This document shows, piece after piece, positions 582 to 14,492 of a stretch of 38,561 nucleotides of DNA. The position numbers and the translations under genes were made by a program. Numbering within the stretch: the first letter of the stretch is position 1; every line of letters begins with the position of its first letter. The notes beneath the pieces were generated by a model. It was given only the letters and a program-made list of their open reading frames with translations. It had not been told where the DNA came from and made no database searches. Origin of the DNA: a virus (taxonomy: Duplodnaviria > Heunggongvirae > Uroviricota > Caudoviricetes); the IMG/VR virus record IMGVR_UViG_2703718787_000016. One strand, written 5' to 3'.

Positions 582-1589
582 CTAGTCAATGGACAGTTTA
601 TGGACACTATCAGCCAGCGGATTAAAGCTAATCGCATCCTGTAAAAAGTCCGGTGAAAAATGCGCATACGTCATCGTTTGTTGAATCGTGGCGTGCCCAA
701 GGATTCGCTGTAACGTAACGATATTTCCGCCGTTCATCATGAAATGCGTGGCGAACGTGTGACGCATAACGTGAGTCGCCTGACCTTTGGGTAAATCCGG
801 TTTCACCTCCTGAAGGATATCCCGAAAACGGATGTAATCAGCCTGGTACAATAGCCCGGTTTTTCGGGTTTTTATCAACGAAAGCACCGTATCAGAAACA
901 GGAACCGCGCGGGATTTTCCATTCTTTGTGTTAAAGAACATTACGCGGTTACCAACGATATGCTCACCACGTAAGCCAGCTGCTTCCCCCCACCTTGCGC
1001 CAGTGGAAAGACACAGAACAGCAACACGACGCGCATCCCCCTCGAGTCGTTCAAGCAGCCGATCAATCTCATCATCTGAAAGAAAGGCCATTTCTGTATT
1101 CCTGACCTTGAGCTTACGTATTCCACGCACCGGGTTTTCGTTATGGAAAACCTCCGCATCAATCAGCGAGGTAAACATTGCAGACAAGGCGCACAAATCA
1201 CGATTAACACTGGAGGGCATTAATCCGGCCTGTAATTTGTCTGAACGATACCCGAGCATAAACTTTCGCGTCATCTCACTGGCGCGGGGGTCCCTCATCT
1301 CACGGTTTATTTTTTCCAGCCTGACCCTGTAAGTATCCCCGTAAGGCTGATTCCGGCCATCAAGCACCCACCAGGCATCTATCAGTTCGGATAACCGACG
1401 CTGATCAGCTGGCTTGGCCTGCCACGGTTTATCGTGGAAATTCTGCAAAACATACCTTTCAAACTCCTGTGCCTTTGACTTCAGGGTAAAAATCTTACGG
1501 ATCCGCTTTCCTTCCGTCCCTTGCGGTCTTACATCAACCTTATAACGCCCGTCTTTGAGTTGCTTAATCGACATGATTAGCCCCTCCAA
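582..1589 (-). CDS. int: Tyrosine site-specific integrase, P2 Int-like
   Basis: 335 aa with phage-integrase catalytic-domain signatures (ARWGEA, HVMRHTFATHFMMNGGNI, LQRILGHATIQQTMTYAHF, carrying the Arg, His-x-x-Arg and Tyr residues). Located at the prophage end next to att and upstream of the repressor, as in P2. Confidence 0.93.
   Translation of the reverse strand: MEGLIMSIKQLKDGRYKVDVRPQGTEGKRIRKIFTLKSKAQEFERYVLQNFHDKPWQAKPADQRRLSELIDAWWVLDGRNQPYGDTYRVRLEKINREMRDPRASEMTRKFMLGYRSDKLQAGLMPSSVNRDLCALSAMFTSLIDAEVFHNENPVRGIRKLKVRNTEMAFLSDDEIDRLLERLEGDARRVAVLCLSTGARWGEAAGLRGEHIVGNRVMFFNTKNGKSRAVPVSDTVLSLIKTRKTGLLYQADYIRFRDILQEVKPDLPKGQATHVMRHTFATHFMMNGGNIVTLQRILGHATIQQTMTYAHFSPDFLQDAISFNPLADSVHKLSID
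589..607. promoter_or_regulatory. Candidate integrase arm-type binding sites (P' arm): two direct ATGGACA repeats
   Basis: ATGGACAgtttATGGACAc overlapping the 3' end of int; a 17/19-identical copy sits at 37287..37305. Resembles the TGTGGACA arm-site consensus I recall for P2 Int. Confidence 0.4.
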
Positions 1590-1643
1590 CGGATGAATCA
1601 GCCGTACACTCTCTACGGGATGAAACCCGCTCGATGTACAGCG

Positions 1644-1985
1644 TTAGCCAGCATTGCGACGAGATCGGGGTGATTTTTGGGTAATGCCGATTGAAACCTG
1701 ATCGCCCTCCGACTGAATGGAGCCATCAAGAGAGAGAGCCGGGGCAACCTGCCCGGCAGCGGGAAATGTTTTGTCGTGAAGTATCCACATAGTGTATTTT
1801 TCGAATCGCTCGACTTGGATTACTTTTTCTACAACCTCAATTCGCGCAGGTTTATATCCAGACTCATAATTTCCTATAGTTCCTACAGAAACTCCCGTTA
1901 CTTGCGAAAACTGAGATTGTGTAAGGTTTTCCGCGTTTCTGATTGCCTTTAGTTTTTTGGCGTAATCTCTTGACATGTTCACCAT
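1644..1985 (-). CDS. Immunity repressor, P2 C-like (HTH_XRE)
   Basis: An N-terminal helix-turn-helix (LTQSQFSQVTGVSVGTIGNYESG) follows the ATG at 1985. It is transcribed with int and divergent from or overlapping the early operon start. The listed ORF extends to a GTG at 2126, so the start is uncertain. Confidence 0.75.
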   Translation of the reverse strand: MVNMSRDYAKKLKAIRNAENLTQSQFSQVTGVSVGTIGNYESGYKPARIEVVEKVIQVERFEKYTMWILHDKTFPAAGQVAPALSLDGSIQSEGDQVSIGITQKSPRSRRNAG

Positions 1986-2008
1986 ACGATGAGTATCCTC
2001 TATTCGAA

Positions 2009-2026
2009 CTTCACCACAGGGTGAAG
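2009..2026. promoter_or_regulatory. Perfect inverted repeat CTTCACC-ACAG-GGTGAAG in the repressor/early-operon switch region (candidate operator)
   Basis: A 7-bp perfect palindrome with 4-bp spacer between the repressor start and the early operon start. Confidence 0.3.
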
Positions 2027-2088
2027 TAAACAAATCAAAACAAACCTTCATGATGCGCGACAAGCGCACCAACGCAAGAGGATAGCAA

Positions 2089-2613
2089 ATGCGGAAGTCA
2101 ATTGCCGATAAAGAGTTATCTGACACACAAGCCCTTCAGGAAAACGACAGCATCACCGAATCCGTTGGCGCGGCAAACGACGATGAACACCAAGAGGAAA
2201 AGAAAAAACGCACCTACAAAAAAGGGGCAACCTTGCGACTGGATGGCCCGGTAGCCGGACTTTGCTCACTTGAAAAAGGGGCAGCCTATATCGGGTTGAC
2301 AAAAGCTGCATTGCGCGTGGCGCTTCAGCGAAATCAGATGCCTGGACACAAGACCCGTTCAAACCCTGAAGATGAAAATTCGGATGGCGTATGGTGGTTT
2401 AACGCCAGAGAGTGGGACAAGCTGGCTGACGAACTACCAGAATGCGAGCCGCCAGAATGGCACAACTGGAAAAGCTACTGGACGTACGACCGACAGAAAA
2501 GAAAGTTTTCCCCGGCAAACAAAGAAGACTGCCAGACCATCAATGGAAAGCGGGTTTACACAGGAAGAAAGTCAAAACTGGAGCAACACCAATACAGCGA
2601 AGGCAACCAGTGA
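2089..2613 (+). CDS. Cox/Apl-like early regulator (excisionase/repressor-type HTH); true start possibly internal (TTG at 2233)
   Basis: The segment GAAYIGLTKAALRVALQRNQMP...GVWWFNAREWDKL resembles the P2 Cox HTH and the following aromatic motif, and it is the first gene of the rightward early operon. The ORF is longer than Cox; an AAGGGG Shine-Dalgarno motif precedes TTG 2233. Confidence 0.5.
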   Translation: MRKSIADKELSDTQALQENDSITESVGAANDDEHQEEKKKRTYKKGATLRLDGPVAGLCSLEKGAAYIGLTKAALRVALQRNQMPGHKTRSNPEDENSDGVWWFNAREWDKLADELPECEPPEWHNWKSYWTYDRQKRKFSPANKEDCQTINGKRVYTGRKSKLEQHQYSEGNQ

Positions 2614-2664
2614 CATCAAAACAAACCGGGATCATTAAGAGCATCGGGATTTGAATGTGTTGAC

Positions 2665-2859
2665 ATGACTGACTCCACTCAAACAAAAGACTTATACAGC
2701 GATTTACGCTTCATCATCATACAACAGCAATCAGGCAGGATGGATCCAACACGTGCAAGCAAGGCCTGGAAAGAAGCCCTTACCGATCAGGGGATCGATG
2801 TAATTAGCGAAGTCATGGCTGAAGTGATTTTTAGGCTGACAAGAGACGAATCACTGTAA
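2665..2859 (+). CDS. Hypothetical early protein (64 aa)
   Basis: ORF in the early operon, same strand, no recognisable motif. Confidence 0.4.
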   Translation: MTDSTQTKDLYSDLRFIIIQQQSGRMDPTRASKAWKEALTDQGIDVISEVMAEVIFRLTRDESL

Positions 2860-2884
2860 TCATCGCATAAGGACCGAGTGAAGA

Positions 2885-3208
2885 ATGAAGCAACAACGAA
2901 ATGCACGCATCAATAACAACACCGAACGCCACGTTGCACGCCAGCACTTCCGTAAAAATAGTGCGACCGCAACCACTGAAATCCATACCACACCAGACGG
3001 TCATCCGGTAAAACAAACCGGAAAGCACACCTGGGCGATTGGCGACACTGGCATCGTTATTCACAAAAGTTTTCGTAGCCCTGTTACTGGCAGATTTAAT
3101 TTTACCCTGACTCGCGGAGATGATTACTTCGGACAGGACTTCACATTTTTTGAAGCGTTAAGAACGGTCGATCGGTTAATGACTGGTCGTAATTTTCACG
3201 CTAAATGA
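2885..3208 (+). CDS. Hypothetical early protein (107 aa)
   Basis: ORF with ATG after a GAG-rich Shine-Dalgarno-like region in the early operon; no recognisable motif. Confidence 0.5.
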   Translation: MKQQRNARINNNTERHVARQHFRKNSATATTEIHTTPDGHPVKQTGKHTWAIGDTGIVIHKSFRSPVTGRFNFTLTRGDDYFGQDFTFFEALRTVDRLMTGRNFHAK

Positions 3209-3221
3209 TACAGATGAAAAC

Positions 3222-3437
3222 ATGGAAACATACAAAATTAAAAATATTGAACACCATGACGGTTTTTTCAGCACTGAACATGTTGCTTGTGTTGTCAGGA
3301 TTTTCAATGAAGTAGATGTGATTTTGAAGCAAAACATAAAGCTTGAAATCATCGCAAAAAGCGAAGCCGACGCCATTGAAATAAAAAAAGCTATTGAACG
3401 CCAGATAATGCCGTTGACAAGTATCATTGCATTTTAA
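3222..3437 (+). CDS. Hypothetical early protein (71 aa), AT-rich
   Basis: ORF in a visibly AT-rich patch of the early operon. Confidence 0.45.
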   Translation: METYKIKNIEHHDGFFSTEHVACVVRIFNEVDVILKQNIKLEIIAKSEADAIEIKKAIERQIMPLTSIIAF

Positions 3438-3455
3438 GCAACAGGAAAAATAACC

Positions 3456-3695
3456 ATGACCAGAAATTACAAAGAAATCGTCAATCAGATCATTAAGGCT
3501 TACAGCCACCGCATCGCAAAATCACCCGAGTTCATACGCATAATGGAGACGCGCTCATTAATGCAAGGACTGAACGGGTTGGCACTGGCCGCATTGGCAG
3601 CTAACGATATTGATGCCACTATCGAAATAAACAACCTGTTATTAGACATTGAAAAAGGCGGAAACATAGAACCCTACAATCTGGAGGCCGCATGA
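3456..3695 (+). CDS. Hypothetical early protein (79 aa)
   Basis: ORF preceded by a GGAAAA-rich leader; ATGA overlap with the next small ORF suggests translational coupling. Confidence 0.5.
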   Translation: MTRNYKEIVNQIIKAYSHRIAKSPEFIRIMETRSLMQGLNGLALAALAANDIDATIEINNLLLDIEKGGNIEPYNLEAA

Positions 3696-3817
3696 GCGTA
3701 TTTCTTTCGTGGGTAATTCTGATTATCTCCGTGCTTATGACAATCGGCATTATGCGAATTATCCACACACTGAAGGATATCGAATTATTCTTTACCGGCG
3801 ATAAACGCCGTAAATAA
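3692..3817 (+). CDS. Small hydrophobic peptide (41 aa, one predicted transmembrane segment)
   Basis: Translation MSVFLSWVILIISVLMTIGIMRIIHTLKDIELFFTGDKRRK; its start overlaps the upstream stop (ATGA). Below the ORF-track size cutoff, so the call is tentative. Confidence 0.35.
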   Translation: MSVFLSWVILIISVLMTIGIMRIIHTLKDIELFFTGDKRRK

Positions 3818-3829
3818 AGCGAAAACCTT

Positions 3830-3931
3830 ATGAAGAATGTAAAAGCAATACTCACCATCGCCACTGTATGGGTGATATTTCAGGTGAGTGCGCTTATCTG
3901 GTTAGCCCTGAAGAATCTGGGGATAATCTGA
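3830..3931 (+). CDS. Small hydrophobic peptide (33 aa, one predicted transmembrane segment)
   Basis: Translation MKNVKAILTIATVWVIFQVSALIWLALKNLGII, immediately downstream of the 41-aa peptide. Tentative. Confidence 0.3.
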   Translation: MKNVKAILTIATVWVIFQVSALIWLALKNLGII

Positions 3932-4007
3932 AGCCGAAAGCAGGCGCGGAATAACACCAGAAAACACACGAACAATTAATTAAGGCATTCATGCCTTCGG
4001 ATTCCCT

Positions 4008-4262
4008 TTGTCTTTTTTCATGAGTCAACAAATGAGAACAGCCGAATCACCCGGCAGAAAAATAACCGCCAGACCAGCTAACCATCATGCACATATCAGC
4101 ATTGCCGCAAGAAAAGCCGAGCGTGCGCATATCTGCGAATTGCTGCATGACCTGGTTAACACAGCGAGAGAGAAGCACACCTCCCCGGAGGAAACCTGTT
4201 CATCCATTGAACGACTGATTGCAATACTCGCCAACCCAGACGAACTGAAGGGGTGCGCATAA
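4008..4262 (+). CDS. Hypothetical early protein (84 aa or shorter)
   Basis: ORF whose stop overlaps the exonuclease start (TAATG). Confidence 0.4.
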   Translation: MSFFMSQQMRTAESPGRKITARPANHHAHISIAARKAERAHICELLHDLVNTAREKHTSPEETCSSIERLIAILANPDELKGCA

Positions 4263-4843
4263 TGAACCATCTCATGATTGACACCGAAACACTGGGTAAC
4301 GGACCGGACGCAGCCATATTCGCGATTGGGGCGGTGTTTTTCGACCCGTTCACCGGAAAGCTGGGCAAGCAGTTTGAGAAATTCATCGACCCGGTGGATT
4401 CAGAACGCAACGGCGGAACCGTCAATGCAGCCACCGCTGTATGGTGGGCCGGACAATCCGTGGAAGCCAGAGCCTGCCTGCGCAACGCAGATGGAACAGA
4501 GCTGGCAGCAGTGACCGAATTTCTGGCGTTCATTTCACGCAATATGCATGACGAAAGCCCGGGCAATTCACTGAACATATGGTGTAAGGGCGCATCCTTC
4601 GATTTCCCGATCCTGAAATCCGCCATAACACGCACAGCCGGAGAAAAAAGCATCCCCTGGTGCTACTGGAACGAGCGCTGTATGCGCCCGCTTATCGCCA
4701 TGGCTGAATCAACTGGATGGAAAATGCCAGGCAGATCAGGCAAAGAGACCATTGCTCACACCGCGCTGGGCGACGCCGTTTACCAGGCAAAGGTCGTGTC
4801 AGAAATCTGGCAGCGCTTCACAACACCATTCCTGAACATATGA
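4262..4843 (+). CDS. 3'-5' exonuclease, DEDDh (DnaQ-like) family
   Basis: Exo motifs MIDTETLG (Asp-x-Glu), FDFPIL and HTALGDAVYQA (His...Asp). Confidence 0.8.
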   Translation: MNHLMIDTETLGNGPDAAIFAIGAVFFDPFTGKLGKQFEKFIDPVDSERNGGTVNAATAVWWAGQSVEARACLRNADGTELAAVTEFLAFISRNMHDESPGNSLNIWCKGASFDFPILKSAITRTAGEKSIPWCYWNERCMRPLIAMAESTGWKMPGRSGKETIAHTALGDAVYQAKVVSEIWQRFTTPFLNI

Positions 4844-5076
4844 GGTGAAGCCATGGTCGCCATCCTGAATGTGTGTTGCTGCCCCCCCCTGAACGTGGAA
4901 AGAAAAGCCCGCGCATCGCTGCGTTTATTCCGCGACGGCGTGCGGAATTTTTCACGCATAAAACCCCACGACTACCTGGTAATAAGAATCGGTTTTCGCT
5001 GGCGATTGCTGAGCAAAAACAACGGGGCGTCATGGGATTTATTAACGCACGAAACCTATAACAAAGAGGCCGCGTT

Positions 5077-6021
5077 ATGAGCAAAGAACTGTTATCCGGC
5101 ACGCCGCTTAAATGGGTGGGCGGAAAAAGTCGCATCATGAACACACTGAAGGCGCATCTGCCAGAAGCAGACTGCCTGGTTGAGCCGTTTGTGGGTGGCG
5201 CATCGGTATTCATGAACACCAGTTACAAGCGTTACATCCTGGGTGATTCCAATGGTGCGCTGATTAATTTCTACCGGCAAGCCAGGGACAACACCGACAG
5301 CCTGATCGACGAGGCGAAAACCCTGTTCCTGAACCACAACAACAGGGGTGACTATCTCATCATTCGCGAAACCTTTAACGCAGAGAATCATGCCTTCCTG
5401 AACAGCAGAACGGGAATAAGCGACCGCCGTGAACTGCGACTGGCCGCCATGTTTTTGTACCTGAACCGACACAGCTTTAACGGTTTGTTCCGCGTGAACG
5501 GAAAAGGCGATTTTAACGTGCCTTTCGGCTGCTACCGCAAGCCCTACTTCCCTGAGCGGGAAATCCGCGCATTTGCAGACAAGGCAAACAGCACCCGAAC
5601 GCTGCTTATCCACGCAGATTTTAAGGATACGCTGAACTCTGCCAGTCACCTGTTCGGCATGGGCAACACGCTTTGCGTGTACTGTGATCCCCCTTACCTG
5701 CGATTCAGTGGCCGGGACAATTTCACCGCCTACGGAAAACCATTCGATGAAGACGAGCACGTTCGTCTGAGGGCAGCGCTTGACCGCCTTTCACAGGAAA
5801 CGGGCGGCATGACCAGCATCACCATATCCAATTCCGACACACCGGAAACCAGACGCATTTATCAGGGTTACCGGATGAACGCCATCCAGGCACCACGAAG
5901 CGTTGGCGCAAGAACCCGGGAATCAGCACCGGAGGTTATCGCCACCCTGAGATGCATCACATCCGCCTTATCAACGGTTCGCACTTCTGCGCCACGAACA
6001 TGGAAGAAGTACGCGTGCTGA
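5077..6021 (+). CDS. dam: DNA adenine (N6) methyltransferase, Dam family
   Basis: N-terminal KWVGGK and FVGGASVF (SAM-binding motif I) and the catalytic DPPY motif (VYCDPPYLR). Confidence 0.9.
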   Translation: MSKELLSGTPLKWVGGKSRIMNTLKAHLPEADCLVEPFVGGASVFMNTSYKRYILGDSNGALINFYRQARDNTDSLIDEAKTLFLNHNNRGDYLIIRETFNAENHAFLNSRTGISDRRELRLAAMFLYLNRHSFNGLFRVNGKGDFNVPFGCYRKPYFPEREIRAFADKANSTRTLLIHADFKDTLNSASHLFGMGNTLCVYCDPPYLRFSGRDNFTAYGKPFDEDEHVRLRAALDRLSQETGGMTSITISNSDTPETRRIYQGYRMNAIQAPRSVGARTRESAPEVIATLRCITSALSTVRTSAPRTWKKYAC

Positions 6022-6049
6022 CAGCAACACGCAATACGGGAGGTAAAGC

Positions 6050-6400
6050 ATGGCAGTGATTTATATCGCCGGTCCCATGACCGGATGCAAAGACCACAAC
6101 AGGACGGCATTTTGCGTGGAGGACCTGAAACTTCGGTGCGCCGGAAACATCGTTCTTAATCCTGCCGTACTGCCTGACGGATTAAGCCAGCAGCAGTACA
6201 TGAGCATTTGTATTCCGATGCTCATGTGTGCCGATGCCATTTACTTACTGGAAGGCTGGGTGGATTCAGCTGGCGCGCGGGCGGAGTACGTAATGGCACT
6301 CAAACTGAACATGCCAGTGTCATTCCCGGAAAACCGGGCAGCCGGAGAAACCATCGCGCAGCTGCTTCACAAATCAAAAGCCGCACAGGCGACTGAGTAA
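6050..6400 (+). CDS. DUF4406-like (nucleoside 2-deoxyribosyltransferase-like) protein
   Basis: N-terminal MAVIYIAGPMTG motif typical of this family; immediately downstream of dam. Confidence 0.6.
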   Translation: MAVIYIAGPMTGCKDHNRTAFCVEDLKLRCAGNIVLNPAVLPDGLSQQQYMSICIPMLMCADAIYLLEGWVDSAGARAEYVMALKLNMPVSFPENRAAGETIAQLLHKSKAAQATE

Positions 6401-6838
6401 CCGACCGGAGATCGAAACATGATTGCGCGAAGAGCTGCCAACCGCCTCACAGGCTTTATTCCAGGCAAGGTTGATCATGCACTCCATCACGGGGCTGTCA
6501 CTTTCCTCAACAAAGGAGAGGCGCGCAATCATGCATTCCGGAGTGAGCACGTGGCGCTGGCTAATCAGTCTTTGATAGCTAAGCGCCTGCCATTCAGCCT
6601 TTTCAGCTCTGATAGAAAGAGAGGCAGCCATGACCTGCCACACCAGAAAGAGCACCACACTGGCGAAAACAAACGTTGCGCTGTCGCAAAAAATGAATGC
6701 GGCAACAATCGCAAGGAAAGCGCTAATCCTCAGAACCAAGGAAGCGCGACGGTGGAGAAGGCTTGTCATGTGTTCAAGCCAGTAGCTGTACCACAGGTCA
6801 AAAAGAATTTCGTAATCAGAAGGGAGCTTATCACTCAT
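6374..6838 (-). CDS. Predicted membrane protein encoded antisense to the early operon (about 154 aa)
   Basis: ATG at 6838 followed by two long hydrophobic segments (ISAFLAIVAAFIFC, FVFASVVLFLVWQVMAASL). The plus strand across this stretch has no convincing gene. Confidence 0.4.
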   Translation of the reverse strand: MSDKLPSDYEILFDLWYSYWLEHMTSLLHRRASLVLRISAFLAIVAAFIFCDSATFVFASVVLFLVWQVMAASLSIRAEKAEWQALSYQRLISQRHVLTPECMIARLSFVEESDSPVMECMINLAWNKACEAVGSSSRNHVSISGRLLSRLCGF

Positions 6839-7221
6839 CAGAAACACCCCGCGTATGCAGACAATCACCAGTTGCCAGGTGATATTAATTCGCCACATTC
6901 TAACCACATCAGCACGCAACACAAAAACCGCTTGCCAGCGCTCGTCGTGTCGGGTTACATTTCCGCTGCACCTCATAAAACGGGTGCCGGGATTTCCACC
7001 CTGCTGACTAGCAAAGCGCACTACCGCGCCAGCGGTTTTTTTGTGCGTACTGTATTGCCACGTTTTTTTCGCATCAGAATTATGGCGGGGCGTACGGGGC
7101 CGACTTCGGTCGGGCCGGGTTCTTTGCTAGCCGGTTGTGGAAACCCTGTACGTCTCGCCACCCCGAGTTTTCCACCTCCGGTTGGTGAGTTTTCAAAACT
7201 TACTAGCAAAGAGGCCACACC

Positions 7222-7443
7222 ATGGCAAACCGCAAGCAACAGCGCGCCCGCGCTGAGCGTCTTCACATCCGCAGCGAAATCAACCGCAGACTTTTCCGCG
7301 CAACACGCGTCGCGCAAATCATGCATATCAACATGCTGCATGAGCGCACGCACGCACTATCAAACCGTTACTGCGCTGCCGTCTTCAGCTATCTGGCCGA
7401 AGACCTGGCAGAACTGCAAAGCCTCATCAACCAGCACCGATAA
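7222..7443 (+). CDS. Hypothetical basic protein (73 aa)
   Basis: ATG preceded by an AGAGG Shine-Dalgarno motif; Arg-rich N-terminus. Confidence 0.4.
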   Translation: MANRKQQRARAERLHIRSEINRRLFRATRVAQIMHINMLHERTHALSNRYCAAVFSYLAEDLAELQSLINQHR

Positions 7444-7511
7444 ACCACATCCGGAAGCTATCCCACACCTGCACGCGGGAGGCTTCCGCACATCTGTTAC
7501 CGGAGGTTCTC

Positions 7512-7928
7512 ATGAAGAGCGTTAAGGGACTTTCAGATATTCAGGACTTCTTTAACTGGATGTGGGCGGTGGATCCCCTGCTGGCTTCCCGCCTGAACAA
7601 CTGGCACGACTATTACCGCCGCGCCTGTAAACAGGCCGCCCGCAGCATCACCACATACGGGGATTTCTCCTTCACCGTTGACGGTCGTTACCGCGTGGAC
7701 GTGAAAGGTGACGGTGATGGCTTTGGTTTATTTCACATCAACGGCACCGACAGTACCGCCATCAGCTGGTCATCGTCAGAGATGGCACTGGTTCTGGAAA
7801 TGACAACCCACAGCGTGGCCGTGAAAGGCATATACACCGCAGAAGACTTTATCGGTGAATACCAGCGCCTTCTCGTGCTGTACCGCGCGGCGTTTCAGGA
7901 GGTCACTGGCGGGGAGTACGACGCATGA
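7512..7928 (+). CDS. Hypothetical protein upstream of the replication gene (138 aa)
   Basis: GGAGG Shine-Dalgarno motif before the ATG; stop overlaps the gpA start (ATGA). Confidence 0.55.
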   Translation: MKSVKGLSDIQDFFNWMWAVDPLLASRLNNWHDYYRRACKQAARSITTYGDFSFTVDGRYRVDVKGDGDGFGLFHINGTDSTAISWSSSEMALVLEMTTHSVAVKGIYTAEDFIGEYQRLLVLYRAAFQEVTGGEYDA

Positions 7929-10438
7929 GTGACCGCAATGCACAGCTGGCGTACCCGTGGAACGCACCGCTACCGGTTATCGATCCTGAAACGTTCGGCA
8001 GAGCACAACCAACCGCATTACGCCAGGCCATTCAGAGCTACATCAACGAGGACATTCGCATTGATGCCAGACTGGATGAAGAAACCGTCTCCTTCCTGAC
8101 AAACACAGACGAAGGCAAGCGAATTAATTCGCATCTTCACCACGACGAAGAGCGTCGGGTCAGACTGGAAAAACTGGCGAAGCACAAACGCGAGAATCCG
8201 CCCACGGTGGTATCGGAAGCCATGGCAGAACTTCGCGCCCTGCCCTCGTTTCTTGGCAACGTGCTCATTCGTGATCTGGCGCGTTTAAACCGCAAACAAC
8301 AAAGCGCCCGCAATGAAGGCGTGAAAAACAACAACACTCACGTGGCCGATAACTTCGTTCGCCGTGGACTGCGCACACGCCTGAAACGCATCGAACAGGT
8401 GAATGAATGCTTCGCCACGACGGCATTCAAAGCCACCGCAGCGCGTCATCGCCTTGATGAATTACTCATGCTGCCACAACTCAACCGTGATCAAATTCAG
8501 CGCCTTGCCACACTAACGGCGGCGGCATTTTCCACCGAACTGGAACGCATATGTGATGAAGTTACTGAGCGGACAGGAAAAGGCGACGATAACCTGTTTA
8601 CCTGGTTGCTGACTTACCAGCAGCTGGCGCGCATGGCAATAAAACTGGGCGTGAACCCACCATACTGGCCGTCACTCGAGATCAGACGTGACCGCCGCAC
8701 GGCACCAGACCCTGAACGGGTACCGGGCGCGGTAATGCGTATCACCTGCGCCACCTGGTGGAACAACCAGCTGCGCCACCTCGCTGATCTCTGGCGGGAG
8801 GAATTACTGCGTGCCGCCGGAAGAGTATCGCGCAAGGCATCCCCCTACATCAGCCATGAGTCACTCCAGGAATTCCGGGAGAAACGCCAGCGCACCCGTG
8901 ATTTTCTCAAAAGCTGGGACATTGAAAACGAAGACGGTGAACGCCTGAGCCTGGAGGACGTGTACTGGTCAGGGCTGGGGAATCCGCGCAACCGCCGCAA
9001 CGAGATGATGGCCTGCGTCAGAGGGATGGAACAGGTCGCCGAATCGCGTGGTGACTCCGCGTTCTTCGTGACAGTGACCTGCCCTTCCCGCTTTCACAGC
9101 GTAAACGAGGACGGCAGCCTGAACCAGAAATACAACGGTGCCACCGTGCGCGATGCCAGTGATTATCTGGTTTACGACGTCTTTGCAGCTGCAAGAAAAA
9201 AACTCAACAAAGAAGGCCTGAGCTGGTACGGGGTGCGCACCGTTGAGCCACACCATGACGGCACACCGCACTGGCACATGCTGGTATTCACCGCCCCGGA
9301 CAATGAAGAACGCATCATTGAAATCATGCGTGACGCAGCAATCAAATCAGATCGCGCAGAACTGGGGAATGATATTTCTCCGCGCTTCAAGTGCGAAAAA
9401 ATCGACCCGGCAAAAGGCACACCGGCAAGCTACATCGCAACCTATATTGGCAAGAACCTGGACGCCAGCACCTTTCACGACAATGACCCGAAAACCGGCA
9501 AACCTTACGCCGATAAAGAATCGGGAAAAACCATGGCGGAAACCGTGGAAAACGCCATTGCCTGGGCGAGTCTCCACCGCATCCGGCAGTTCCAGTTCTT
9601 CGGTATCCCGCCCCGCCAGGTATGGCGTGAACTCCGCCGCCTTGCCGGACAAATGGAGCGTAACCCCGCATCACCGAAGCGCCTGGACCATGACGACATT
9701 GACGCCATTCTGGCCGCCGCTGACGTGGGGTGTTTTGCCACCTACATCAACCGTCAGGGCGGCGTGCTCATTCCACGCAACCTGTACCTGATCCGCACCG
9801 CATACGAAACCGCAGATGAGGCCAACGACTACGGCGAATTCCCGCAGCGCATCTACGGAATTTGTGCCCCGTCGCTCGGCGAGCGCTACACCATCTGCAC
9901 CCATCCGGACGAGTGGAAACTGGTCAGAAAAGAAGCGAAAGCCGACAACAGCACGGACGAGGATTTTGACGTTGGGGGCGGCTTCGCCGCACCTTGGACT
10001 CGTGGCAATAACTGTCCCCATGATGAAAAAACAGACACCGGAGAGGGTAAAACCCCACCACCGGAAACCAGGAAAGAACAAAAACTGACCATCCCGGAAG
10101 GTGATTTGAGCGAATGGTTAAGGTCACTGACCCCCACAGAGAGAAAACAACTCACCAGGCAGCTGAAAGATGCGCCATCTGACACAAAAACCGTGAAAAC
10201 CGGCGGCCCCACCACGCCCGATGACGTCATACATGTGCGTACAGCATTGCCGCTGACTGACGTCACCACCACCGTAATCAAGTCGGCACTGAGCACGACG
10301 GGCGAGGAGCTACACAGTGGCGCAGCACTTTCCGTACACAGAGGTGCACGCGTTCGCCTGCCTGACGGGCGGATTGTGCACTGGGATGAAAAATCACGAA
10401 GCCTGGTGGCAGCAGATCAACCGGAGGTTAACCCATGA
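7925..10438 (+). CDS. A: Replication initiation endonuclease, P2 gpA-like (rolling-circle HUH initiator)
   Basis: 837 aa with an HUH-type metal motif (HHDGTPHWHMLVF) and paired active-site tyrosines (YIATYIGKNL); position and size match P2 gene A. Confidence 0.92.
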   Translation: MSDRNAQLAYPWNAPLPVIDPETFGRAQPTALRQAIQSYINEDIRIDARLDEETVSFLTNTDEGKRINSHLHHDEERRVRLEKLAKHKRENPPTVVSEAMAELRALPSFLGNVLIRDLARLNRKQQSARNEGVKNNNTHVADNFVRRGLRTRLKRIEQVNECFATTAFKATAARHRLDELLMLPQLNRDQIQRLATLTAAAFSTELERICDEVTERTGKGDDNLFTWLLTYQQLARMAIKLGVNPPYWPSLEIRRDRRTAPDPERVPGAVMRITCATWWNNQLRHLADLWREELLRAAGRVSRKASPYISHESLQEFREKRQRTRDFLKSWDIENEDGERLSLEDVYWSGLGNPRNRRNEMMACVRGMEQVAESRGDSAFFVTVTCPSRFHSVNEDGSLNQKYNGATVRDASDYLVYDVFAAARKKLNKEGLSWYGVRTVEPHHDGTPHWHMLVFTAPDNEERIIEIMRDAAIKSDRAELGNDISPRFKCEKIDPAKGTPASYIATYIGKNLDASTFHDNDPKTGKPYADKESGKTMAETVENAIAWASLHRIRQFQFFGIPPRQVWRELRRLAGQMERNPASPKRLDHDDIDAILAAADVGCFATYINRQGGVLIPRNLYLIRTAYETADEANDYGEFPQRIYGICAPSLGERYTICTHPDEWKLVRKEAKADNSTDEDFDVGGGFAAPWTRGNNCPHDEKTDTGEGKTPPPETRKEQKLTIPEGDLSEWLRSLTPTERKQLTRQLKDAPSDTKTVKTGGPTTPDDVIHVRTALPLTDVTTTVIKSALSTTGEELHSGAALSVHRGARVRLPDGRIVHWDEKSRSLVAADQPEVNP

Positions 10439-10839
10439 CACGATTCCATTGCGTACTCCAGCGCCATGATTTCAGCACCATCATGAACGCACGCATTCCG
10501 GCACTGACACTGAGCGGCGTCAGTGTTCGACCGCAGCCAGGCGACGAACTGGAAATCACGATCGCCAGTCCCGATCGCAGCACAGACACCGTTATGACCG
10601 ACATCCTGACTGCAAGAATCAACACCGACAGAAGCGCATTCATCGTTGCCGTGCGCCCTCGTCGCGCCATATCAGAGCCTGAACCACTGACTCCCGTAGG
10701 AAAAATCATGCAGGCATACCACGAAAAACAGACCAGAAAACTCAACGAAGAACTGGCAAGAACGCTGGCCGTCGTTAACCGAAAAGCGGCAATTGTCCGC
10801 TATGTGCATTCGGCCGCCAGCAGGCAATCACGCAGGTAA
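10435..10839 (+). CDS. Hypothetical protein after gpA (134 aa)
   Basis: ORF overlapping the gpA stop; no motif recognised. Confidence 0.5.
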   Translation: MTRFHCVLQRHDFSTIMNARIPALTLSGVSVRPQPGDELEITIASPDRSTDTVMTDILTARINTDRSAFIVAVRPRRAISEPEPLTPVGKIMQAYHEKQTRKLNEELARTLAVVNRKAAIVRYVHSAASRQSRR

Positions 10840-10887
10840 CAAAAGACCATGAACATGACCAGAAACAGCAAACCGAAGGAGCACACC

Positions 10888-11058
10888 ATGAACGACATCA
10901 GGAGGATCAGCGACAAAGAGCTTACGAAAATGATTGAGTCGGCGCAGCAGCTGCTTTCACGACGAAATCCGGTTGTGGAAGAAACATGGTGGGAAAATTT
11001 ACTGGCAGCACTGACCGAACTCCGCGAACGCCGGAACAACGAAGGAGCCGCCAAATGA
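10888..11058 (+). CDS. Hypothetical small protein (56 aa)
   Basis: AAGGAG Shine-Dalgarno motif upstream of the ATG at 10888; stop overlaps the next start (ATGA). Confidence 0.4.
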   Translation: MNDIRRISDKELTKMIESAQQLLSRRNPVVEETWWENLLAALTELRERRNNEGAAK

Positions 11059-11393
11059 AGACACCCAGAATGACCGGAAAGGTAATCATTTTACGCTACC
11101 TGGAAACGCACGCACGCTTCAGCGCACCAGAGCTGGTTGAAAAACTGGGCGTGAAAAGGACCATCATTAATCAGGCCGCCGGGAAGATGGTACGCGAAGG
11201 GCTGCTGGTTGTGGACGGGTACACGGACAAGATAACGCATTACCGGAAGCTAACGGAAAAGGAACGACTGGAGCTGGCGCAACGGGCAGAATGGCAACAA
11301 GAGCCGTCCGTAATTGAAGCCTGCAAGCGCAGCGAAATCATGAAGCGAATTCTATTTATCTACGGCGCTGGCGAAGAGCTGCCAGTCATCTAA
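11055..11393 (+). CDS. Putative winged-helix DNA-binding protein (112 aa)
   Basis: GGAG Shine-Dalgarno motif then ATG at 11055; helix-turn-helix-like segment (SAPELVEKLGVKRTIINQAAGKMVREGLL). Assignment by pattern only. Confidence 0.45.
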   Translation: MKTPRMTGKVIILRYLETHARFSAPELVEKLGVKRTIINQAAGKMVREGLLVVDGYTDKITHYRKLTEKERLELAQRAEWQQEPSVIEACKRSEIMKRILFIYGAGEELPVI

Positions 11394-11425
11394 CCCCAAC
11401 AATAAAACCAACACGGGAGACAAAT

Positions 11426-11743
11426 ATGCCAACACAGGTTGCAACAGAGGGACGACTGGCAGCAGACCCGAACACAAGGAGAACAACCAAAGGAACCAAC
11501 GTCACAACGGCACAACTGGCGGTATCACTACCCTGCCATGGCGCAGAACAGCCAACCACAATGTGGCTTTACCTTATTGCATTCGGGAAGCAGCACGAAG
11601 AACTGGCAAAACACAGAAAAGGCGATCTGATTCTGGTGCACGGAAACTTGCAGGTAAACAGGTATCAGGACAAGTACGGGCAACAGAAAGAGGGCTGGCA
11701 GTTGCTGGCGCAAAGCATTATCAGCTCAAGAACCGGGCGATGA
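11426..11743 (+). CDS. SSB-like OB-fold protein lacking a C-terminal tail (105 aa)
   Basis: Aligns by eye to the bacterial SSB OB-fold core (EGRLAADP...T..G..V; WLYLIAFGKQHEELAKHRKGDLILVHGNL...Y.D.YGQ), with no Gly/Pro-rich linker or acidic tail. Confidence 0.6.
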   Translation: MPTQVATEGRLAADPNTRRTTKGTNVTTAQLAVSLPCHGAEQPTTMWLYLIAFGKQHEELAKHRKGDLILVHGNLQVNRYQDKYGQQKEGWQLLAQSIISSRTGR

Positions 11744-11753
11744 CTTCACGCAT

Positions 11754-11794
11754 GTTACCCTCAGCAGCGAGGGTAACACAGGATTTCTTTTTTC
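11754..11794 (+). terminator. Rho-independent terminator ending the early operon
   Basis: Perfect 9-bp stem GTTACCCTC/GAGGGTAAC with 6-nt loop, followed by a T-run (tttcttttttc). Confidence 0.5.
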
Positions 11795-12329
11795 AGTCAA
11801 ACCGAAATCGGCCGCTTGTCGCGTATGCATAGGTGACCACCGCACCCAGCGCATTCACACGCTTCTTCACATAAATCACATTACCATCCTGATAGTCACC
11901 GTATGGGTAGCAAATAAATATTGTTTTTTGCAAATCAGGATCATCAACAAATGCCCCTGAACAACTTTTTGAGCTACCGCGACTGTACTCATAGGGAGCG
12001 GAATAGAATGAATCTTCACCCGGAAGAAAATATATCAGCGTAACCAGGAGGGTAAACAGAATCATCCAGGTAAGAAGGCACATACCCGAAAAAAACTTAA
12101 GATACGATGTAACCCCGGTAAATTTAGACCGATCAACCAGGTTCTTTTTCAACAGGCACAGTGAGACAAAAACCGAAAGCACCACAGACACTGAAACAAG
12201 GCAGTTTGTCGTGAACGAATAAAGGTAGGTAATTCTGTAAACATCGTTTCGCCACCAAATAAAAAGAAAAATCCCCCCCAAAACAGAAAGCGTGACAAAA
12301 GTTAAATAAGGATATGAGTAATTTTTCAT
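11793..12329 (-). CDS. Accessory membrane protein of unknown function (178 aa; three hydrophobic segments and a Cys/Tyr-rich C-terminal domain)
   Basis: ATG at 12329; hydrophobic segments (LTFVTLSVLGGIFLFIWW, LVSVSVVLSVFVSLCLL, MCLLTWMILFTLLVTLIYFL). AT-rich codon usage unlike the neighbouring phage genes; sits between the early-operon terminator and the candidate cos. Confidence 0.55.
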   Translation of the reverse strand: MKNYSYPYLTFVTLSVLGGIFLFIWWRNDVYRITYLYSFTTNCLVSVSVVLSVFVSLCLLKKNLVDRSKFTGVTSYLKFFSGMCLLTWMILFTLLVTLIYFLPGEDSFYSAPYEYSRGSSKSCSGAFVDDPDLQKTIFICYPYGDYQDGNVIYVKKRVNALGAVVTYAYATSGRFRFD

Positions 12330-12691
12330 AGTTCTCACCCGGCAGTCTCCCACTGATTCAGACAGATGAATATCATCACCACCTGCCACAAAAAATCGCA
12401 AGATCAAAACTGCACAAAAGCGCACGAAATTGCACAATTTTTCTAATGTACTTTTTCCCCATTCCGCCCGGTAACGGCGCTGGCTGAAGCCACTTTGCAC
12501 GGTGCACGAAAAACAAGGCAATTGCAGCGCGCAGGCGACGAGGGAAGGGCGCCCGAATTGAGGGGTGGAAGGCAGGTTGCTTTATTTGGGGTCGTATTGC
12601 GCGTGATACGCGCGCAGTGAAGCCAGTTTTGAAAAACCACATCAAAACATGGTCAGGGAAACAGGCCGTCAGAATGCGTCTGATTGCGTCT

Positions 12692-12723
12692 GGCGAGGTC
12701 GGAGATCGGGAGGGAAACGGATG
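12692..12723. other. Candidate cos (cohesive-end) region
   Basis: GGCGAGGTCGGAGATCGGGAGGGAAACGG loosely resembles the P2/186 cos sequence as I recall it (GGCGAGGCGGGGAAAGCA) and lies where cos is expected, between the replication-distal accessory genes and Q. Weak, memory-based match. Confidence 0.25.
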
Positions 12724-12874
12724 TGACGAACGGGATAAAAAAGAGAGACAAAAATCACTGAAATCATAAAGTTAATAGAATTTAAAGTATCAGTCATTCA
12801 CGGGTGAAAACTTGCGCACAATATGAGGTGAGCGCAGAATACAGGCTGGCATAAACAGACCAAAGGAGAGCGAC

Positions 12875-13378
12875 ATGAGCCATTTTCGCGATTTGTACCT
12901 GGCAAACAAAAAGAGCCGGGACGCGAGGCGGGAGGTTACAGGGATTCTGCGCAATCAGGCTGAAAAGCTGGTTGCTTTTTATGAGCAGTGGCTGGAATTG
13001 CCTTCAGAGACATGGGAAGACAAAGACGGCGAGCATCATCGTTACGTTGATACGGGGTTTCCGTGCAGAAACGATCGGGACTTCAGGCCATTTCCGGTAA
13101 ATATGATTGCAACCGACACAGATAACATATTCCGGATGGCTGTAAGAACATGGGTTGACTCACACGATGAAGGAGAGTCGGTAAACATAGTCCTGGCAAT
13201 GGAATTACATTCCGTCGGAAAAGACGGTGTATCTCTTCGGGTTCGCGTGGAAGATGATACCTCCATTCGCGTGGTCATCAACGGAGACGGTGACAGGGAA
13301 TGGCTGCCGATAGTAAACAGCATGAAGATACATATTATCAGCAAGCTGCAAAGAAGAACGCCATCCGCATTCCGTTAA
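12875..13378 (+). CDS. Accessory soluble acidic protein of unknown function (167 aa)
   Basis: Strong AAGGAG Shine-Dalgarno motif before the ATG at 12875; followed by its own terminator hairpin; no motif recognised. Confidence 0.6.
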   Translation: MSHFRDLYLANKKSRDARREVTGILRNQAEKLVAFYEQWLELPSETWEDKDGEHHRYVDTGFPCRNDRDFRPFPVNMIATDTDNIFRMAVRTWVDSHDEGESVNIVLAMELHSVGKDGVSLRVRVEDDTSIRVVINGDGDREWLPIVNSMKIHIISKLQRRTPSAFR

Positions 13379-13392
13379 GAGAGCTGGAGAGT

Positions 13393-13417
13393 CGGGGCAT
13401 AAATTTTTTATGCCCCG
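13393..13417. terminator. Bidirectional terminator hairpin between the accessory ORF and portal gene Q
   Basis: CGGGGCATAAA-TTT-TTTATGCCCCG perfect inverted repeat with an A/T-rich centre, between convergent genes. Confidence 0.6.
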
Positions 13418-13443
13418 GCGAAGCAGCAGACAAGCGAAGCGCG

Positions 13444-14487
13444 TCAGCTGGCGTTATCCAGAAGCAGGGCATAGGGGTTAAAGCGCATCACCTCAACGCC
13501 AAGCCATTCATTGACATGCTTCATGGCCTCCATGACAGGTTGCAACTCGTTGATGAAAAACACTCTCGCCGCTTTTTCAACGTCACCAAACGCCGCATTC
13601 CCGTCAGGCATTGCCCCCATCAGTTGAGGTGGTACACGATGGGCAGCAAGGATATCGTCGCGGGCGCTCCCCTTGATGTTCAGGAATTCATCCTTTGCGG
13701 TTATCTGCTGGAACGGCAGTATTTGCACACCATCCTTGCCACCACCCGGCGCATGTAGAAACAGGTTTTTAAACGCCCCGCGACCACGGGAATCCGTAAG
13801 CGTTTTTTTAATGGCCTCGACACTTTCCGCATTCGCCTGAGATGTGCCTACATAGATAATACACCCGGCATGAGAGCCGTTATCGTAGTAGAGCTTGCGG
13901 AATGTATCCGCTGAGTTTGACAGGCTGACAGACAGCAACCCGCCGATATATTCCGGCATCCCGTAGATCTCCTGATTAATATCAGGATTAAGCACGTGGC
14001 ACACAGTCCCTTTCCTGAAACTGAACTCCGTACCGTCGTCGTTGAGATACCAGTAGGTATCCAGGTCACTTCCCCTGCGTGTATATTTTGCCAGTGCCGG
14101 GCGAAGCAGGAGTGGTTCCCCCAGCCTGTTACGCCGCACTTCAAGATAGGCATTACCAAACACAAACCAGTCGAGCGCAAACGCTGAAAACGCCTGGCGG
14201 GACAGCAGAGGGTGAGGAACAAAGCACCCGTTCAGGGCGTTGCGCTTGAAGTACAAAGCCGACTGATGCCAGGACGCACGACGGGATGCACGGGCGATAG
14301 CGTTCCAGTCCATGGGGGTATCAAAGTAGCGCCCGTTATCTGCACATGACATGTTATCCAGGAGATCCATGCGGCTGACTTCATAGGGCCCATCAAAGGT
14401 GAATGCGCTGAGTGCAGGCGTTGATTTCAGTGCATCGTGTAGCGAATCCTGCCCCCTCTTTCCGGTGTATTTTTTGCGTTTACTCAT
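13444..14487 (-). CDS. Q: Portal protein, P2 gpQ-like
   Basis: 347 aa, matching P2 Q in size and in position next to the terminase ATPase on the same strand. Confidence 0.9.
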   Translation of the reverse strand: MSKRKKYTGKRGQDSLHDALKSTPALSAFTFDGPYEVSRMDLLDNMSCADNGRYFDTPMDWNAIARASRRASWHQSALYFKRNALNGCFVPHPLLSRQAFSAFALDWFVFGNAYLEVRRNRLGEPLLLRPALAKYTRRGSDLDTYWYLNDDGTEFSFRKGTVCHVLNPDINQEIYGMPEYIGGLLSVSLSNSADTFRKLYYDNGSHAGCIIYVGTSQANAESVEAIKKTLTDSRGRGAFKNLFLHAPGGGKDGVQILPFQQITAKDEFLNIKGSARDDILAAHRVPPQLMGAMPDGNAAFGDVEKAARVFFINELQPVMEAMKHVNEWLGVEVMRFNPYALLLDNAS

Positions 14488-14492
14488 TGTGT

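Follow-up and report, generated by a model that had tools for sequence, protein, structure and literature searches.

A probable P4/P1-type IsrK/C4 RNA immunity cassette and a divergent gene for a two-helix membrane protein in the early region of a P2-like Escherichia coli prophage

What lies in the 821 bp that, within the rightward early operon of a P2-like prophage, separate the end of a DUF4406 gene at position 6400 from the start of the next credible plus-strand gene at 7222? The DNA concerned is IMG/VR virus record IMGVR_UViG_2703718787_000016 (Caudoviricetes), which was analysed over its full length of 38,561 nucleotides and is hereafter called the window, with positions counted from its first letter. 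The chromosome of Escherichia coli STEC2018-607 (NZ_CP075697.1) holds a prophage 100% identical to the window, and the window is a P2-like prophage of this strain. An earlier interpretation made from the letters alone, without database searches (the sequence-only reading), had described about 820 bp without a plus-strand gene, and had proposed that the interval holds a moron transcribed against the early operon together with a possible small RNA or attenuator. All that it described was recovered, at its coordinates or no more than a few bases off, and its interpretation is borne out in part. The interval 6374-7221 consists of two unrelated units, which lie back to back and diverge from a common intergenic region of ~130 bp. 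In the favoured reading, to which as a whole a probability of about 0.72 is assigned, the leftward unit is a moron encoding a protein with two transmembrane helices (2-TM) and the rightward unit is a P4/P1-type RNA immunity cassette built from IsrK and C4 RNAs.

The rightward unit was recognized by a scan of the whole window against Rfam at the gathering threshold, which returned exactly two matches, C4 and isrK. The latter is an IsrK-type leader, equivalent to the seqA leader of phage P4, on the plus strand at 6968-7042 (RF01394; full length; 58.9 bits against a gathering threshold of 50; E 2.8e-10). Its structure comprises two 5' hairpins, a single-stranded linker and an intrinsic terminator (ACCGC-GCCA-GCGGT and a T run, plus strand, 7023-7043, hairpin 7023-7036), which was reported independently by a terminator scan and also forms the 3' hairpin of the Rfam model. 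On the same strand, a promoter scan found a promoter-like site, TTGCCA-18-TACATT, at 6932-6961, which ends 6 nt before the IsrK 5' end; across 57 distinct relatives, its -35 hexamer is invariant, its -10 hexamer nearly so (with slight variation at 6960), and part of its spacer (6938-6948) varies. A second promoter-like site at 7055-7083 was discarded for poor support, as its -35 hexamer varies among relatives and its -10 hexamer falls within the conserved 5' end of C4.

The other match is a C4 antisense RNA, a member of the family of P1/P7 c4 and P4 CI RNA, on the plus strand at 7078-7165 (RF01695; 80.3 bits against a gathering threshold of 45; E 2.4e-14; model positions 1-87 of 87). It is folded into an outer stem (7083-7099 with 7144-7160), a first hairpin at 7100-7113 and a second at 7114-7135. 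The GC stem closed by a UUCG tetraloop that had caught the eye of the sequence-only reading (ccgac-TTCG-gtcgg, plus strand) is located at 7100-7113, as both the sequence and the Rfam model indicate. Since it is the first hairpin of so strong a C4 match, it is far from a chance feature, and some relatives carry compensatory CCAGC/GCTGG variants at this place. The earlier suggestion of a small RNA or attenuator is right but says too little: the hairpin does not stand alone and is part of a complete P4/P1-type cassette made up of promoter-like site, IsrK leader with terminator, C4 RNA and target sites at the ribosome-binding site of an epsilon-like gene. The IsrK RNA at 6968-7042, the three copies of the recognition pattern described below and the link to an epsilon-like gene had all been missed.

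Within C4, two determinants are exposed on the plus strand: b' (CTTTGCTAG, 7122-7130) in the loop of hairpin 2, and a' (GTGGAAA, 7137-7143) in a single-stranded bulge 3' of that hairpin. Complementary plus-strand sites are found on either side. Upstream, site a1 (TTTCCAC, 6993-6999) occupies the loop of IsrK hairpin 2 and is complementary to a', while site b1 (CTAGCAAAG, 7008-7016) lies in the single-stranded linker of IsrK and is complementary to b'. Downstream, site a2 (TTTCCAC, 7169-7175) is situated just 5' of a predicted hairpin that pairs CCUC with the Shine-Dalgarno GAGG, and site b2 (CTAGCAAAG at 7203-7211, within a feature spanning 7203-7214) overlaps the Shine-Dalgarno sequence AAGAGG (7209-7214) of a 73-aa gene. 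Three occurrences of the composite a...b pattern were counted in the 38.5-kb window, against 0.00 expected by chance: two plus-strand targets and one complement inside C4. The predicted hairpin (7175-7215) joins the CCUC beside a2 to GAGG, and because its 3' arm includes part of b2, this cis structure may also mask the ribosome-binding site.

The present analysis demonstrates the family identities, the RNA structure and a three-way covariation of the recognition sites. All 80 IMG/VR loci that encode the 73-aa protein carry the cassette upstream of it, at 82-94% identity; variation within it is greatest at the a and b sites, the three copies of each changing together. Covariation was examined in 44 distinct related sequences, three loci with aberrant cassettes being left out. 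The upstream pairings (a1/a' and b1/b') consist of 100% standard pairs, and 11 of their 16 pairs have changed on both sides; the downstream pairings (a'/a2 and b'/b2) are 98.3% paired, with changes on both sides in 10 of 16. All 27 pairs of the C4 internal helices are kept (100% paired), four of them with changes on both sides, compared with 34-46% in slid controls. For the upstream sites, slid controls pair at 27-51%, and the covariation score is 0.724 against 0.129 after shuffling. The sequences come from closely related prophages, and this kinship makes the shuffle control generous, although not the slid one; the argument consequently rests on the slid control and on the number of independent types.

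These types are numerous: six a types and 12 b types are mixed in at least 13 combinations. The three aberrant loci show further arrangements. In L008 (211-486), the cassette is recombinant, with a breakpoint between IsrK and C4; its a2 and b2 fit its own C4, and the a1 and b1 of its IsrK (TTTCCAC and CAAACGAAG) mismatch its own C4 type (a' TTGAGAA, b' CTTTGCTCT). In L080 (130-405), C4 hairpin 2 is tandemly duplicated, and two different b' loops (CTTTGCTCT and CTTGTGTAG) are found in one RNA, which could be an immunity RNA of dual specificity. L075 has an indel.

The first gene under the cassette (plus strand, 7222-7443) encodes the 73-aa protein, a P4-epsilon-like 'derepression' protein recognized by PF25738, by phrog_3688 and by BLASTP with P4 epsilon (32% identity over 50 aa; pairwise E 8e-8). 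In the RefSeq record of the STEC2018-607 prophage it is labelled 'hypothetical'. It is followed on the same strand by a 138-aa gene, orf138 (7512-7928; phrog_3237), known from the list of open reading frames (ORFs) and a profile match and present in 18 of the 80 related loci; homology of orf138 to P4 orf151 was considered and rejected, no similarity having been found. The distal gene of the operon is that of the replication endonuclease gpA (plus strand, 7925-10438; Pfam Phage_GPA, E 2e-108), which is also annotated by the NCBI Prokaryotic Genome Annotation Pipeline (PGAP). The orf138 stop codon overlaps the gpA start (ATGA, 7925-7928), an arrangement suggestive of translational coupling of gpA synthesis to the genes under C4 control. 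A gpA gene lies 3' of the cassette in 71 of the 80 loci, and eight of the remaining nine end too early to include it. In this position the cassette would govern the epsilon-like gene and probably also the replication gene.

The long plus-strand ORF at 6419-7525, the only such candidate to span the interval, proved spurious: it crosses both RNA genes as well as, in a different frame, the 73-aa gene, and dN/dS (the ratio of nonsynonymous to synonymous substitution rates) in its frame is ~1.1-1.3. Given a value of about 1.2, it was rejected as a gene, and the gap described by the sequence-only reading is indeed free of plus-strand genes between 6400 and 7222.

Which known systems does this cassette resemble? 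The immunity region of phage P4 comprises the PLE leader with seqA, the CI RNA with seqB, and then seqC, epsilon, orf151 and alpha. Work by Deho and Ghisotti reportedly attributed its effect to RNA pairing, untranslated leader ORFs and early termination before the replication genes. When scanned, the P4 immunity region matches both Rfam models in the same order as the window, the CI RNA as C4 and the seqA leader as isrK. In both systems an antisense RNA is complementary to sites on both sides of itself, and an epsilon-family gene and then a replication gene follow. In contrast to P4, the host of the present cassette is a complete P2-like helper-type phage with a C-type repressor and gpA and without a satellite primase; its epsilon homologue shares no more than 32% identity, orf138 has no relationship to orf151, and the epsilon-like gene stands directly after C4, without a kil/eta region. 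Phage P88 (Xuanwuvirus) also matches both Rfam models, with the cassette immediately ahead of the genes for its 'derepression protein' and for replication.

A combinatorial design is likewise found in 80 P4-like loci (L089-L168) that were collected with P4 epsilon, which have at least six b' types and at least three a' types. No a or b type is common to this set and the P2-like set (L004-L083), and the polarity of the a site is opposite in the two. Among the satellites there is an a' type, TTTCCAC, that is complementary to the a' of the window phage's C4, GTGGAAA; this match could be due to chance, since only three of the bases are freely variable.

The founding Rfam C4 member comes from the immI region of P1 and P7 (c4, icd, ant), where changes in the determinants give rise to P1/P7 hetero-immunity. 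Citron and Schuster, whose 1990 work is cited in PMC7313666, are said to have described how the a' and b' of c4 pair with a1/b1 upstream and a2/b2 downstream. That downstream pairing occludes the ribosome-binding site of the gene that opens an anti-repressor operon, and in the window b2 has the corresponding place at the epsilon-like gene. Differences from P1/P7 include an epsilon/'derepression' protein in place of Icd/Ant, a replication gene in the operon, a different phage backbone, and the number of a/b combinations, which is two in P1/P7 against at least 13 in the P2-like set.

By analogy with these systems, a course of events may be proposed. Transcription from the promoter-like site at 6932-6961 would yield the IsrK leader, which carries a1 and b1 and ends at the intrinsic terminator. 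Read-through transcripts would contain C4, from which, as in P1 and P4, a stable RNA of ~80-90 nt would be excised. Pairing of a' and b' with a2 and b2 would then block translation of the epsilon-like gene, and the untranslated leader would invite Rho-dependent termination before orf138 and gpA. Such a chain, in which pairing leaves the leader ORFs untranslated and transcription ends prematurely before the replication genes, has been summarized for P4 (PMC4825925). Because the same determinants also pair with a1 and b1, the short IsrK RNA could compete for C4 as a decoy or activator, a role demonstrated for the IsrK of Gifsy-1. The net effect would be a second, RNA-based layer of immunity on top of the C repressor (WP_000247831.1). 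It would silence an anti-repressor-like protein and replication both in the lysogen and in superinfecting phages that are homo-immune, with specificity set by the a and b sequences. RNA processing, the block of translation, termination and the anti-repressor activity of the 73-aa protein are all inferred here by analogy.

A different emphasis is suggested by the Salmonella prophage Gifsy-1, whose isrK-orf45(STnc1160)-anrP region resembles the cassette in that IsrK is followed by a processed RNA of ~80 nt and then by an anti-repressor gene, and in that a short leader RNA is complementary to a downstream RNA. In that prophage, IsrK has been described as a structural homologue of the P4 SeqA RNA, and the processed downstream STnc1160 may act like CI; the output is AntQ-mediated antitermination and growth arrest, and Hfq binding and a dual function as small RNA and mRNA have been reported for Gifsy-1 IsrK only (PMC4825925). 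Gifsy-1 lysogens transcribe both IsrK and STnc1160 at a high level (PMC7067206). The cassette of the window might accordingly work mainly as an activator, with the short IsrK RNA opening an inactive read-through mRNA and turning on the downstream protein. Consistent with such an activator role are the presence of the two Rfam families in the same order as in Gifsy-1, the complementarity of a1/b1 to a'/b', through which free IsrK could titrate C4 or open a structure, and the resemblance of the predicted CCUC/GAGG hairpin to the 'inactive structure A' of PMC4825925. Gifsy-1 itself is lambdoid and has a translated orf45 coupled to anrP. Against an activator role stands the lack of an orf45 equivalent in the window, where no short ORF of this kind terminates at position 7222 and the ATG at 7082 opens the long spurious frame that runs to 7525. 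Moreover, a2 and b2 covary with C4 as tightly as the upstream sites do, which argues for direct pairing of C4 with the mRNA, as in P1/P4. A predominantly activating cassette is therefore a tentative and rather unlikely alternative, and the two views are compatible, with repression exerted by C4 and relieved by IsrK.

The leftward unit is a minus-strand gene at 6374-6838, whose 154-aa product is an inner-membrane protein of the phrog_6315 family with two TM helices. It is a genuine gene, under purifying selection in its own frame only: measured against homologues from three related loci (80-81% protein identity), dN/dS was 0.21 here, and the five other frames gave 0.46-1.8. The phrog_6315 profile, of 152 positions, matches residues 6-154 with an E value of 1e-65. 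The two hydrophobic helices and the soluble tail that had been read from the translation agree with the hydropathy profile, which places hydrophobic segments at residues ~32-50 and ~54-76, followed by a tail of ~75 aa. A word-indexed search found only E. coli relatives, at 73-99% identity; an exhaustive HMMER search of 1.84 billion representatives added more distant ones, with 21 relatives at E <= 0.001, which apart from a few short fragments are mostly 150-167 aa long and aligned end to end at 25-38% identity. The motifs F.L.YSYWLE, RR.D, IEE.DS and NPA.NRAC and the two hydrophobic helices are conserved in the alignment. An AlphaFold 2 model based on a deeper alignment (predicted local distance difference test score, pLDDT, 85.6) consists of a long helical hairpin with both TM segments and three short C-terminal helices. 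Both termini probably face the cytoplasm (N-in/C-in), where the helical tail of ~75 aa would lie.

A hexamer scan offers a candidate weak promoter for this gene, TTGTGT-16-TAGAAT, on the minus strand at 6897-6924, which stands back to back with the promoter-like site of IsrK. At its other end, the membrane-protein gene is convergent with the DUF4406 gene, and the 3' ends of the two overlap by 27 bp (6374-6400). A terminator-like hairpin at this overlap is found on the minus strand only (6394-6379), and rightward early transcription may for this reason run antisense through the 2-TM gene as far as the IsrK terminator.

How widespread is the gene, and is it bound to the cassette? Family members are found upstream of the cassette, on the minus strand, in 17 of 77 related IMG/VR loci, and P88 has none. 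Fourteen of the 17 occupy exactly the same position, seven with 80-99% identity and seven with ~38%; the other three carry a version of ~34% identity one gene further away. The slot just upstream of the IsrK promoter-like site (window ~6400-6900; L002 and L004-L083) appears as a position of variable cargo, which among the 77 loci holds an SPFH-domain gene (49 loci, the P88 type), a 184-aa helix-turn-helix (HTH)-like gene, a MarR-like gene, Dam directly, or the 2-TM gene. More distant, full-length homologues of 22-38% identity are carried by a P2-like prophage of Erwinia (L084) and by lambdoid prophages of Citrobacter (L085-L087) and Pseudomonas (L088), in each case as a lone gene near the repressor that faces against the neighboring early genes.

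Neither IsrK nor C4 was found near these distant homologues (L084-L088), which rules out a functional tie of the membrane-protein gene to the RNA cassette. A tie to DUF4406 is ruled out as well, as DUF4406 is absent from the Erwinia, Citrobacter and Pseudomonas contexts. Most cassette-bearing loci are in turn without the membrane-protein gene, and since each unit occurs without the other, the two are regarded as separate. The distribution is that of a mobile, fast-diverging accessory gene. The idea of a moron set against the early operon has thus gained ground, as judged from sequence comparison: the gene is real, conserved and patchily distributed, and appears alone and opposite-facing in distant prophages. 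The interval was also considered as the known P2 defense hotspot and rejected as such, because that hotspot sits between gpA and gpQ (PMC9122126).

With regard to function, the membrane protein may be an inner-membrane effector made by the prophage in the lysogen that counters infecting phages through exclusion or abortive infection. We infer this from the gene's arrangement and by analogy with RexB of lambda, SieB of P22, HK97 gp15 and the SLATT 2TM effectors, which are likewise small inner-membrane proteins encoded by lone genes set against lytic genes; the patchy distribution and quick divergence of the gene are further likenesses to exclusion and abortive-infection morons. It differs from RexB, SieB, gp15 and SLATT proteins in that the searches found no sequence similarity or significant structural similarity to them, and no partner gene is present here.

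Alternatively, the protein could have a part in lytic growth or replication of the phage itself, or it could be an addiction element of a toxic or selfish kind. Such roles would suit a protein without a defense link, given that small 2-TM proteins include holins and other lytic-cycle proteins, and the overlap of the gene's 3' end with the convergent DUF4406 gene means that early transcription could regulate it by antisense interference. Nevertheless, the gene opposes the early operon, with all lysis genes far away; its lack in most close relatives, including the viable P88, indicates that it is dispensable for the phage cycle; and its lone, opposite-facing layout is repeated in three unrelated prophage backbones and is typical of morons (PMC7067206). 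A role in the phage's own cycle, or as an addiction element, is thus considered unlikely.

Less probable again is a stand-alone, pore-forming suicide effector of SLATT type. The protein does have two TM helices with flanking helices in ~150 aa, five of the top 14 BFVD structural matches are giant-virus proteins annotated as SLATT (E 0.025-0.31; template modelling scores 0.38-0.45), and two remote family members give weak matches to the PADLOC '2TM effector' (E 1e-4 and 6e-3). On the other side, none of 17 family members matched the Pfam SLATT models, all structural E values exceed 0.001, and a two-helix hairpin is a fold of low information. Furthermore, the gene stands alone in all contexts examined, with no neighboring SMODS, SLOG, TIR or reverse-transcriptase partner. 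A SLATT identity is accordingly viewed as quite doubtful.

The gene model itself differs in RefSeq, where PGAP has called a 215-aa minus-strand coding sequence, WP_244495808.1 (JFX52_RS04325, L001 7075-7722), over window positions 6374-7021 with a GTG start at 7021, whose N-terminal 61 codons overlie the IsrK RNA and the promoter-like site; neither IsrK nor C4 is annotated there. That this longer protein is correct and the RNA genes are absent is highly improbable, even though some database clusters of the membrane protein also have N-terminal extensions, because the remote homologues of 150-167 aa align from residue 1 of the 154-aa form without a shared extension, the 152-position phrog_6315 profile suits that form, and the IsrK RNA and promoter-like site under the extension are conserved in phages without the membrane ORF; with the extension both absent from remote homologues and overlying the IsrK region, the ATG at 6838 is the better start.

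Several points weigh against the combination of a 2-TM moron with an IsrK/C4 immunity cassette and have to be set beside the evidence for it. On the side of the cassette, the covariation set draws on close kin and excludes the aberrant loci L008, L075 and L080. The PF25738 score of the 73-aa protein is barely above the cut-off (28.2 bits against 27). No LexA box was found at the cassette: there is no match in 1017-15350, and the number in the whole window equals chance. The lack of an orf45 equivalent at 7222 means that details may differ between the systems compared. On the side of the moron, the candidate promoter of the membrane-protein gene is weak, with 8 of 12 hexamer positions matching, and it was unreported by a stricter promoter scan. 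The protein has no significant match in PADLOC-DB v2, NCBIfam or Pfam, defense and exclusion families included; its sole Pfam hit is to DUF6239 and is sub-threshold (18.4 bits against 27.1). A profile search of PDB sequences gave no match, a Foldseek search of the PDB with the better model returned nothing at E <= 0.001 and generic helical hairpins only, and Foldseek against BFVD yielded only the sub-threshold SLATT-like matches mentioned above.

As for the wider context of the two units, the left part of the prophage contains the integrase, an adjoining small HTH repressor and then the rightward early operon, with genes for a 3'-5' exonuclease, a ParE-like protein, Dam methylase (5077-6021) and DUF4406 (6050-6400), and further on gpA. 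The ParE-like gene is a 75-aa ORF at 4853-5080, termed 'ParE family toxin-like protein' by PGAP, with no obvious annotated antitoxin adjacent to it. A portal gene and a frameshifted terminase pseudogene lie 3' of the early region.

How much of this is new, and how common is the cassette? Both RNA families are already in Rfam, and the design of the cassette is textbook knowledge for P1 and P4; a search of one literature library found no paper linking C4 or IsrK to P2-like phages. DNA matching the 1.65-kb query is present in 1178 of 5426 complete E. coli genomes (about a fifth), mostly in the 80-90% identity band, and phage records match the cassette portion of the query only. The NZ_CP075697.1 chromosome itself has four places that match, which suggests that several related cassettes probably coexist in one cell.

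For the biology of these phages, the finding describes a P2-like phage of helper type that has the same design of RNA immunity as its satellite P4 and as P1. This offers a possible route to explain why some P2-like prophages are inducible and P2 is not: Sp13, a P2-like prophage with an epsilon-like gene, is mitomycin-inducible while P2 itself is not, and the involvement of epsilon has been suggested (PMC2669165); P88 is also mitomycin-inducible (PMC5285337). The inducibility of Sp13 and P88 is also indirect evidence that epsilon-like proteins may bind P2-type C repressors and inactivate them. The cassette may equally help to explain how prophages that are close relatives remain hetero-immune within one cell. 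Its numerous a/b sets, matched by nature, provide a panel of presumably orthogonal RNA-RNA recognition pairs, and the 2-TM protein represents a small prophage accessory family that can be cloned and tried against phage panels. A bolder and rather speculative proposal, to which a low probability is attached, is that the C4 cassettes of P2-like phages constitute a combinatorial RNA 'barcode' immunity (at least 6 x 12 codes) and that the 2-TM protein founds a new family of stand-alone exclusion or abortive-infection effectors. The barcode design would be common to P4-like satellites, with code sets that do not overlap and with the polarity of the a site swapped. If this is true, helpers and satellites may have evolved to avoid, or to exploit selectively, cross-immunity at the RNA level.

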